64,000 nt of DNA from Malacoraja senta (GCA_038087875.1 CM075988.1:26910001-26974000); one strand, 5' to 3'; counted from the first letter of the stretch, positions 7,601 through 10,600 are shown. Program-made: numbers and translations. The notes: generated by a model from the sequence alone, not told the origin.

Positions 7601-10600
7601 GGTGACCTGCCAGGGCCAGCTCCCCTTCGCTGCCTCACTCCCTCCAACTATCATGGAGAAGTCATGCTTCTCTCCGCAAACTCCATGTTGAAAAAGACAG
7701 TGAGTTAAGGTTAGGCAGCCCGCATAATGATAGGTTGCAATAGGCTTGACAAACTTTGGATGCACTAAAGCGAAGAGAAACCAGTGCTTTGATCATTGGT
7801 CTCATGGAATCAATATTCATGAGCCTTGCTTTGCAACAGTCAGTATTGCTCCAGTACTTAATAACCACCCAGCATTAGTACATCAGTGTCCTTTCTCCAC
7901 AGAGAGCGTGAGTGGGGGCAGGAGAGGGAGGGGTTTGCTTTCTTTGTAAAGGAAGGGATATCAGACATATCAGATATAGTCTTGACACAAAAGGGTACAC
8001 TTGGCTCAAACTAATCTTTGACAGCATCACAATGATGCAGCAGGTAGAGCTGCTGCTTGACAATGACAGAGACTTGGGTTCAATCCTGACCTGTCTGTGT
8101 GGAGTTTGCTGGTAGTGCCTATGATGGCATGGGTTTCCTCCGGGTGCTCCGGTTTCCTCCCACAACACAAGGACGTGCAGGTTTGTCTCTTTATTGGTCT
8201 CTGTAATTTTGCCCCTAGTGTCTGTTTTTGCTAAATGTCATTGCTTAATAATGAGCAGAATTTTATGTTCATGCATATGTAGGATTCTTAATGACATGAC
8301 TGTAAGGCTGACTCTCACTCTAGTGAGTGAAGTTTATTGATGCCAAATAGTGGGAGTTGGTTGCAGTGTCGGGTCACTCCAGTGTGGGTGGAACATGTAG
8401 TGTTAAGGGCAGCTTGGTAGATGATAGTATACCAGCTGAAACATTAACCTTAACCCGCACGACAAACCTGCTTTAAGATCCCCAAATTGAAAGAGTGATT
8501 AAAGCGTTCTATTTGGAGCAGATGTACTTACCAAAGCATTTCAATGCTATTACATTTCCTGATGTACAGCTGGTCCTGGCAAGAAAGAAAACAGGGAAGT
8601 ATTTTCCTGTAGATGCCACGAAGAATGGAAACATCTTGCACCACCAACAATAATGAGTGAGTGGAAAGTGGGTGTGTTTTATATCTGCTTGTTCTAGTGA
8701 CTTGGGAAGAAGGAAGGCAAGCAATTTTTATAAGGTACTTCCATAGGCTTGTGCCTTCTCAATGTGTTTGGCATTCAGTTAGACACTTTAGGTGGATCAG
8801 CTCTGTTGTAAAGAGGGCAACGTGACCACACATGCACAGTGGCATGCAGTTATTCTCCAATAACTGGAGAAACTGTTTTAACGATCATGTTTTGGAGATA
8901 AATATTGGCCGTGAGATGGGAGAGAATTCTATTTCCCTCTCCCTCAAGATTGCATGCAGATGAGGCTGAGGTCAGCATTTTCTTCCAATCCCAGAGCTCT
9001 ATCCCTTAACTGACTTCACTGGGAGTATTACACTGGCGAGGAGAGCGACTGGCGGGCACTGTGAGGGCCACGCCTAGTTTGAGGCATCGAAGATGAACTT
9101 CTACCTCAAGAGGCTGTTGGGTGATTGTTTCAGACTCCGGTTCAAACTTTTATTATTCTGCAAGATTGAAGGAGTTAAAAAGGAGACAAAAGAAATCTTG
9201 ACATTATATCATTTATCATAAAGAGTGTAAAATAGAGCAGTTACTAAATATATAAGTGACTAGTTAGTATGTTAGTCATTACTGAAGTTTATTTTAACTT
9301 TGGATAGCAGCACACTGGTGCAACGGTAGAGCTGCTGCCTCTTGGCTGTTATCTGTGTGGAATTTGCACGTTTCTGTGACTTGGTAGGTTTCTTCTGGGT
9401 TCTCTGGTTTCATCCCACATCTCAAAGATGGATAATTGGGATGCAGACTGCCCAAGCGGAATCCCGGTGGCCTGAACATTGACTTCTCCAGTTTCCGGTA
9501 GCCCTTGCTGTCTCCTCCCCTTCTCAGCCCTCTGGCTCCTCCTCTTCCTTTCTTCTTCCCGCTCCCCCTACCCTGCATCAGTCTGAAGAAGGGTTTCGGC
9601 CCGAAACATTGCCTATTTCCTTCGCTCCATAGATGCTGCTGCACCCGCTGAGTTTCTCCAGCAATTTTGTCTACCTTCGATTCTCCAGCATCTGCAGTTC
9701 CTTCTTGATCACTGACTATTTACCTCGGGTGTTCCCTTACCAACAGTGACATGTACTGCTGTAATTAGAGCACATGTGGTTGTGATGGACCTGATGTCTG
9801 TCAAAAGAGATGATTCAAATTTTTAGGAAAAGGCCCAACAAGACTGTTTGCTTCCAAACAGTCAATTCCAACACATTGGTTTTGTGAAAGTTTCTTACAA
9901 TTCCCTCTTTCTGCAGAAACACGTGTAATTATACAACGCACGTCAGAGGAAATGTGGCCAACCTGTGGCTCCAGATGTTCTCTAAATTGCTGTCCAGCTC
10001 ATCAGTAATCTCGGCGAAACCCTGTGTGTAATTACGTTCAATCTCACTCACGCTAATTACACTCCAGCTCAGGTATCTGTGGAATAAAAGAACAAATGAC
10101 AGGCTTTACATTTCGCTGTCGGTATTGTCAATATATAATCAGCAAACATAAGTGCTACTATTTCTTCAAATCAGCTTTCTTTTTGCATTTAACACATTGT
10201 AAGTATTGGAAAGTGAATTTCTTTGAAGCTTTCCCAGTGAACATTTTACATTTCTGCTGTGAGATTGTGAACCTGATGTACAAAGCTGGGATTGCTTGTT
10301 ACCTAGTTAAATACAGTAATACATTGGAATGTTATTTGTTACTAGGATAGCACAGAGGCATAGCTGCCAGAGCTACTGCCTCACAGCGCCAGAGACCTGA
10401 CCTCACATGCTGTCTGTGTGAAGTTTGCACGTTTTCCCTTTGACTGCGTGGGTTTCTTCAGGATGCTCTGGTTTCCTGCCACATCCCAAAGATGAGTGGG
10501 TTTGTAGGATCATTGATTTCTGCTCCAATCTTGTAGTTGTTAAGGTAGTGGGATAATGTAGAACTATAGTGAACGGGTGATCAATAGTCGGTGTGGAACT

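Follow-up and report, generated by a model that had tools for sequence, protein, structure and literature searches.

How is a trypsin-type protease activated when methionine, and not arginine or lysine, precedes its activation bond? The question is raised by a gene in a 64,000-nucleotide stretch of DNA from the skate Malacoraja senta (GCA_038087875.1 CM075988.1:26910001-26974000), referred to here as the window. A preliminary description made from this DNA had reported a Met-IVGG activation site with a P1 codon ATG at 7652-7654. The codon is confirmed on the minus strand, which is the strand of the TMPRSS5 gene: IVGG begins at 7651, ATG is read from 7654 to 7652, and DNA contigs agree.

The gene is intact. 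Its 11 exons (18222 to 4488) join into 579 codons with no stops, and the splice sites are GT at all donors and AG at 10/10 internal acceptors (Table 1). A final exon with Gly and the stop codon probably starts at 2948. The protease exons of the window contain His57, Asp102, Asp189-Ala190, GDSGG, SWG, and PGVY, so the description of the triad, the Asp189 equivalent, the SWG and PGVY motifs, and the reading frame as intact holds in full. The cytoplasmic tail encoded by 17724-18222 (minus strand) has about 165 residues and is acidic and partly repetitive. It ends, before the anchor, in an Arg-rich stretch that is conserved in all elasmobranch orthologues. Elsewhere in the window, long simple tandem repeats at about 27900-29350, 47150-49000, and 50400-51870 give spurious open frames, and mobile-element-like frames occur near 41800-43860 and 45540-45930 (both by eye).

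Table 1. TMPRSS5 features in the window, with positions counted from its first nucleotide.
Feature	Position	Strand	Basis
Cytoplasmic tail exon, long, acidic, Ser/Thr/Pro-rich	17724..18222	-	tblastn to skate orthologues; exon join
Candidate start ATG	18219	-	5' boundary of first exon not fixed
Basic juxtamembrane stretch and type II signal anchor exon	16916..17014	-	exon join; anchor is a predicted helix (orthologue model)
Stem exon	12106..12222	-	exon join
SRCR domain exon 1	10938..11067	-	Pfam SRCR_2, E 2.5e-8; exon join
SRCR domain exon 2	9963..10076	-	exon join
SRCR domain exon 3, 44 nt, spliced to activation exon	8532..8575	-	joint in RNA-type contigs, 3 runs
Uncommon GAG splice acceptor of activation exon	7681..7683	-	exon join; RNA-type contigs; DNA contigs, two further organisms
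Activation exon: linker, Ile16 motif, Thr32, His40, His57 (7531-7529)	7518..7680	-	Pfam Trypsin; exon join
Activation linker Cys-Gly-Glu-Lys-His-Asp-Phe-Ser-Met (P9-P1)	7652..7678	-	translation, orthologue alignment
P1 Met codon ATG	7652..7654	-	translation; Met in 30/30 chondrichthyan proteins
Ile16-Val17-Gly18-Gly19, predicted new N-terminus	7640..7651	-	translation, alignment
Protease exon with Asp102	5680..5858	-	exon join; RNA-type contigs
Protease exon with GWG and Cys122 (partner of linker Cys)	4958..5056	-	exon join; RNA-type contigs
Protease exon with Lys156, Ala175, Asp189-Ala190	4731..4873	-	exon join; RNA-type contigs
Protease exon with Asp194-Ser195, Gly216, Gly226	4488..4640	-	exon join; RNA-type contigs; Pfam
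Candidate last coding exon (Gly, stop), start 2948	2943..2948	-	inferred; matches Rhinoraja protein C-terminus

The identification of the gene as TMPRSS5 is supported by its domains, its closest relatives, and its single copy. Pfam detects SRCR_2, Hepsin-SRCR, and Trypsin in a skate orthologue and in window exons, and the architecture matches TMPRSS5: a type II anchor, a single SRCR domain, a C-terminal S1A protease domain, and no LDLa. The nearest single-domain bony-vertebrate relatives among the matches listed are named TMPRSS5 (52-58% over most of the ectodomain), and full-length identity to the sturgeon, zebrafish, newt, and turtle orthologues is 50-51%. Identity of the window protein is 85% to the Rhinoraja protein and 92% to a protein whose cluster contains the TMPRSS5 models of Amblyraja and Leucoraja. 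A second, Arg-bearing TMPRSS5 copy was not seen in searches of the skate's own genome, which give lower bounds; the next matches reach at most 60%. The phylogenetic tree contained no paralogue and carries no information on orthology. About 390 kb upstream, the contig carries a ZW10 exon in the same orientation, but ZW10_C also matches other contigs; in human, TMPRSS5 adjoins ZW10. The ZW10_C matches are spread over many small contigs and mostly contain a stop codon; they are possibly amplified pseudogene copies. The isoform X2 models of Pristis and Narcine are without the Cys136/GWG segment, probably through an alternative donor or a model error.

The Met codon is not peculiar to one assembly. 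Between 7440 and 7800, contigs of two DNA samples from the same organism show zero differences from the window, one of these samples possibly being the assembly's own source. Two other organisms (90-95% identity) have the same bases in their DNA contigs both at the codon, 7652-7654, including base 7653, and at the GAG acceptor, 7683-7681. RNA-type contigs of two related organisms splice the activation exon at the predicted GAG acceptor and also join the five protease exons. Since the 44-nt SRCR exon is spliced onto this acceptor, the linker and its Met are exonic; a wrong exon boundary at the linker is ruled out by the exon join and these contigs. In transcripts, the Met is documented by 13 Logan proteins (581-600 aa) from contigs of 1,896-2,485 nt, which are probably spliced.

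An assembly error, a rare allele, or a gene in decay would account for the Met with next to no probability. This reading has in its favour no more than the uncommon GAG acceptor and, at 8533-8534, a Phe in place of the Ser of related organisms, and against it stand the same codon in other organisms, the spliced transcripts, the open frame, and Met in 30/30 chondrichthyan TMPRSS5 proteins, which excludes an assembly error or rare allele. The Phe at 8533-8534 (minus strand) lies two residues before the linker Cys. This residue is Ser in 16 other skate proteins and mostly Phe in teleost TMPRSS5.

The distribution of the Met was obtained from 84 TMPRSS5-type proteins kept from 120 matches listed, after 36 multi-domain or unrelated proteins were dropped. 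Among these matches, P1 is Met in 15/15 elasmobranch proteins (13 named species) and basic in 69/69 bony-vertebrate orthologues (Arg in 68, Lys in 1). Fourteen further skate TMPRSS5 proteins all have Met. The sole chimaera evidence is a 72-residue Callorhinchus fragment that reads CGEKHVFSM ahead of IVGG. Chondrichthyans thus have Met in 30/30 proteins from 16 named species, the chimaera fragment included, and the alignment shows the residue to be fixed. The presence of Met in Callorhinchus means that the change predates the divergence of chimaeras and sharks some 420 million years ago. In TMPRSS5 of other lineages, rhinoceros has Ser at position 18 (IVSG), and a bat model is decayed.

Paralogues have a basic P1. 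In the skate's own genome, 16 of the 19 paralogue loci fetched, from 30 other matches, are basic at P1. The remaining three are serine-protease exons with degenerate N-termini, one of them with stop codons. P1 is basic at 68/68 sites in non-TMPRSS5 proteins (n=42). Of 47 SRCR-protease representatives examined, 35 carry the motif, and all 35 have Arg or Lys at P1. A non-basic P1 is uncommon yet not rare in the wider family: 145 representatives provide 185 sites, of which 20 are non-basic, mostly in long multi-domain proteins and with a single Met. The basic P1 of the paralogues suggests an ancestral Arg that gave way to Met on the chondrichthyan stem. The homologue searches identified no TMPRSS5 orthologue in lamprey or hagfish, so the polarity of Arg to Met rests on the paralogues. 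Chondrichthyan TMPRSS5 does not have the Arg or Lys at P1 that marks a canonically activated TTSP zymogen, and it does have the Ile16 motif and the tether between the linker Cys and Cys122. The claim that Met stands where orthologues and paralogues have Arg or Lys is therefore borne out, with 30/30 Met against 69/69 basic residues in bony orthologues.

The change is not confined to P1. The preliminary description had the codon as one substitution away from AGG, which is correct for the codon but understates the departure from bony vertebrates, because fixed differences are present at P7, P5, P4, P3, and P1. The P7-P1 linker of bony fishes is mostly T-R-A-K-L-P-R, and that of elasmobranchs is E-K/R-H-D/G-F-S/F-M, in which Glu, His, Phe, and Met are invariant in 14/14 sequences. 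P5-P1 contains no Lys or Arg in 14/14 elasmobranchs and one or two in all 69 bony sequences; P4 is Lys or Arg in 67 of the 69. The net charge of the linker is -1 in 13/14 elasmobranchs and +3 in 66/69 bony sequences.

The elasmobranch linker is also slow to change. Its relative rate from P7 to P1 is 0.55, within the slowest 9% of 7-residue stretches, and eight comparison segments in elasmobranchs have rates of 1.35-2.04. In 22 bony sequences the linker has a relative rate of 1.06 (66th percentile), with the Arg residues at P6 and P1 as the slowest sites. On the elasmobranch tree, a Met evolving at the mean rate has a simulated chance of 0.10 of staying invariant, which falls to 0.03 at 1.5x. 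For Glu, His, Phe, and Met jointly the chance is about 0.002 and about 0.00008, respectively, as products of per-site simulated values for sites picked after the fact. One invariant residue is weak evidence alone, since the 14 elasmobranch sequences have 156 invariant columns among the 343 of the ectodomain.

Another possible explanation is that translation of a free protease domain begins at this ATG, inside the gene. Met has a single codon and the ATG directly precedes IVGG, but the context is weak (T at -3, A at +4), and the product would be without signal sequence and disulfides. Removal of Met ahead of Ile is unfavourable. The internal start would also leave the invariant Glu, His, and Phe unexplained, and their codons vary silently (TTC/TTT). 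It is a very improbable account of the Met.

The catalytic machinery has been kept in full. Ile16, Gly18, Gly19, Asp194, the triad, Asp189, Gly216, and Gly226 are invariant in 14/14 elasmobranchs, and the earlier claim of an intact trypsin-type pocket stands. The simulated chance that Ile16, Gly18, and Gly19 are jointly invariant is about 0.03 at the mean rate and 0.006 at 1.5x. By its sequence, the enzyme has the His57, Asp102, Ser195, and Asp194 of an active S1A protease, together with the Asp189/Gly216/Gly226 pocket. Neither the triad loss nor the activation-domain loss of a pseudo-protease is seen, as all residues are kept. In the zymogen-stabilising triad, His40 and Asp194 are kept and Ser32 is replaced only by Thr. 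Lys156 is present in 14/14 elasmobranchs and in 67 of 69 bony orthologues (Arg in the other 2), and is Met in one skate model; being common to bony orthologues, it is no shark adaptation.

Lizards differ in this respect. Eight TMPRSS5 models from 7/7 species retrieved (Salvator, Tiliqua, Podarcis, Sphaerodactylus, Eublepharis, Anolis, and Varanus) are without the Ile16 motif and none keeps GDSGG, two of them stopping or diverging before that position. All are predicted models from 50%-cluster representatives, in a search that favours divergent or decayed models. The SRCR region and His57 are kept in these models, whereas GWG and the Ile16 motif are lost and GDSGG is not intact. Lizard TMPRSS5 is possibly a squamate-wide pseudo-protease or a decaying gene. 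The comparison is suggestive of a motif that decays where activation has apparently been abandoned, but not in cartilaginous fishes. A locked zymogen with a non-proteolytic role, one of the outcomes put forward in the preliminary description, is disfavoured by the invariance of the Ile16 motif, Asp194, and the triad here, as against their loss in the lizard models.

A related explanation is that TMPRSS5 is never cut and acts in single-chain form, as a zymogen whose Arg-directed activity is low or as a scaffold, with Phe and Met packing on the protease domain. Every nearby tryptic site is gone from the linker, and the alternation at P1, P3, P5, and P7 could equally reflect one linker face packing on the zymogen. 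Two predicted structures are too poor around the linker to be informative on this packing; the first has a mean pLDDT of 34 and the second 57.7, with the linker, SRCR domain, and S1 loops below 50. The lizard models are also suggestive of a gene that persists without its activation site. In tPA, Lys156 is the basis of single-chain activity, and the Ser32-His40-Asp194 triad is absent. The Lys156 of elasmobranchs would fit such activity, but it is common to bony orthologues and is Met in one skate model. Against an uncut enzyme are also the retention of His40 and Asp194, with only Ser32 changed to Thr, and the invariant Ile16, Gly18, and Gly19, unlike in lizards. Zymogen-locked matriptase and prostasin support mouse development (PMC5452369). 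On balance, an uncut TMPRSS5 is unlikely.

Substrate-binding positions have changed together with the linker. Residue 175, which borders the S4 site, is Glu or Asp in 66/69 bony sequences and Ala in 14/14 elasmobranchs, and residues 97, 175, and 217 are changed along with the linker in elasmobranchs. As judged from the alignment, this shift can represent either release from self-recognition or re-tuning toward it. Re-tuning would suit an explanation in which the Met is a brake: TMPRSS5 itself or another Asp189 protease would cut Met-Ile slowly, helped by co-adapted subsites and membrane clustering. KLK1 cuts kininogen after Met. Mixed tryptic and chymotryptic specificity is described for KLK1, 10, and 11 (PMC3014083), and many TTSPs auto-activate (PMC10376093, PMC7834812). 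The P1 Met of ecotin adapts to the pockets of trypsin, factor Xa, plasma kallikrein, and MASP, although it is bound 17- to 7000-fold less tightly than Arg (PMC9136129). The S1 residues Asp189, Gly216, and Gly226 are unchanged, and the acidic P4 has no matching basic residue at 97, 175, or 217. A slow tryptic cut is improbable on this evidence. The earlier statement that trypsin-like proteases should not activate the enzyme is nevertheless too strong, since P1 Met can enter Asp189 pockets, though with the weaker binding given for ecotin.

The invariant Phe at P3 permits a two-step route. An endoprotease would cut after Phe, and a dipeptidyl peptidase would then strip Ser-Met and expose Ile16. 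Tryptase and granule proteases mature in two steps of this type. The Phe is invariant in 14/14 elasmobranchs and present in the chimaera, and cleavage at that point would leave just two residues ahead of Ile16. Dipeptidyl peptidase I is lysosomal and of broad specificity, and would not require an invariant Met. It is among the kallikrein activators named in PMC3014083. Chymase-locus enzymes were not found in sharks (PMC4646688). This route is quite improbable. A cut after the P6 Lys or Arg with dipeptide trimming was rejected, as five residues are left and trimming overshoots Ile16.

The explanation that is best supported, and that we consider rather likely, is that the intact enzyme is still activated through cleavage of the Met-Ile bond, probably by a non-tryptic protease for which the conserved His-x-Phe-x-Met|Ile-Val motif would be the recognition site. 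Since Met replaces the usual Arg at the activation bond, the activating protease is likely of a different kind than in bony vertebrates. The loss of Arg at P1 and Lys at P4 would have uncoupled the zymogen from self-activation and tryptic cascades. The non-tryptic protease would read His-x-Phe-x-Met|Ile-Val and cleave between Met and Ile. Ile16 would then pair with Asp194, the light chain would stay tethered through the linker cysteine, and the activated enzyme would cleave after Arg or Lys. The steps downstream of the cut are established S1A chemistry. Human spinesin is said to cleave trypsin substrates (PMC6952315).

The non-tryptic route proposed in the preliminary description is therefore the best reading, while the class of activator can be suggested only from resemblance of the motif. 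A pepsin-family aspartic protease of the cathepsin D/E, BACE, or renin type is the best-fitting class by this analogy, as a tentative assignment. A P1'-reading metalloprotease, a cysteine cathepsin, and a chymotrypsin-type enzyme share the rest. The activators named earlier were chymotrypsin/elastase-like enzymes and metalloproteases; these are not the best fit, and metalloprotease and chymotrypsin-type enzymes remain as candidates. A chymotrypsin-type enzyme is expected to favour the invariant Phe two residues upstream of the Met. A 2015 survey did not find genes of the chymase and met-ase loci in sharks (PMC4646688), and granzyme M, chymase, cathepsin G, and neutrophil elastase were rejected as activators on this ground. 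A possible chymase is an elephant-shark granzyme A/K-like gene that has an SGG triplet. Pepsin-family genes are present in the genome, which is uninformative on the activator. It is conceivable, if doubtful, that TMPRSS5 of all cartilaginous fishes has been under a dedicated pepsin-family aspartic protease since before the chimaera/shark split. If true, a vertebrate membrane serine protease would be controlled by an aspartic protease.

The Met residue itself is already visible in public RefSeq and UniRef models. A description of Met-P1 TMPRSS5 was not found in the literature as judged by titles and the starts of abstracts, a scope that excludes most subscription journals and all supplements. 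The accessible parts of PMC7834812, PMC10376093, and PMC6952315 describe TTSP activation or TMPRSS5 without the Met-P1 form. TMPRSS5 is a cell-surface protease that is enriched in nerve and serves as a plasma marker of CMT1A neuropathy; its role was still unknown in 2019 (PMC6952315). On its sequence, the chondrichthyan protein is a known-family member that departs from the Arg/Lys-P1 rule of canonical TTSP zymogens. We know of no exception to this rule among vertebrate TTSPs, and a non-tryptic activator, if shown, would make this a lineage-wide one. TMPRSS5 occurs in three natural states: Arg-activated in bony fishes, amphibians, turtles, birds, and mammals; with P1 Met and an intact enzyme in cartilaginous fishes; and apparently decayed in lizards. 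The existence of the Met form provides a natural test of the need of TTSPs for tryptic activation, and the fixed chondrichthyan linker is a ready bait for discovery of the activator.

Compared with bony-vertebrate TMPRSS5, the skate protein has the same type II anchor, stem, single SRCR domain, trypsin-type protease domain, and nine-residue Cys-anchored linker. In contrast, it has a P1 Met, an acidic and hydrophobic linker, and a much longer cytoplasmic tail. Zymogen-locked matriptase and prostasin are likewise membrane serine proteases that function uncut with the P1 Arg removed (PMC5452369). They are engineered forms whose natural orthologues keep Arg, whereas the change in chondrichthyan TMPRSS5 is natural and lineage-wide. 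Ecotin presents a P1 Met (Met84) to trypsin-type pockets (PMC9136129), but it is an inhibitor with a second binding site and no zymogen.

The renin site of angiotensinogen is similar to the skate linker in having His at P5, Phe at P3, a hydrophobic P1, and branched residues at P1' and P2'. It has Pro and His at P4 and P2, where the TMPRSS5 linker has Asp and Ser/Phe. The renin subsites are given as Phe (S3), Leu (S1), Val (S1'), and Ile (S2') in PMC6378967. Renin additionally contacts the body of its substrate, and the likeness to the TMPRSS5 linker is a motif resemblance only. Cathepsin D substrates have a hydrophobic P1/P1' pair in common with Met-Ile. This preference is reported in PMC3688724, where Met is outside the six commonest P1 residues. 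Persephone of Drosophila is comparable to the favoured reading of TMPRSS5 in its non-basic P1 and its maturation by a protease of another class: it cleaves an Arg substrate, has His143 at P1, and is matured by cathepsin 26-29-p (PMC5823974). Persephone, however, is a secreted immune sensor with a clip domain and a long bait region, whereas TMPRSS5 has a short disulfide-tethered linker and no identifiable bait region.
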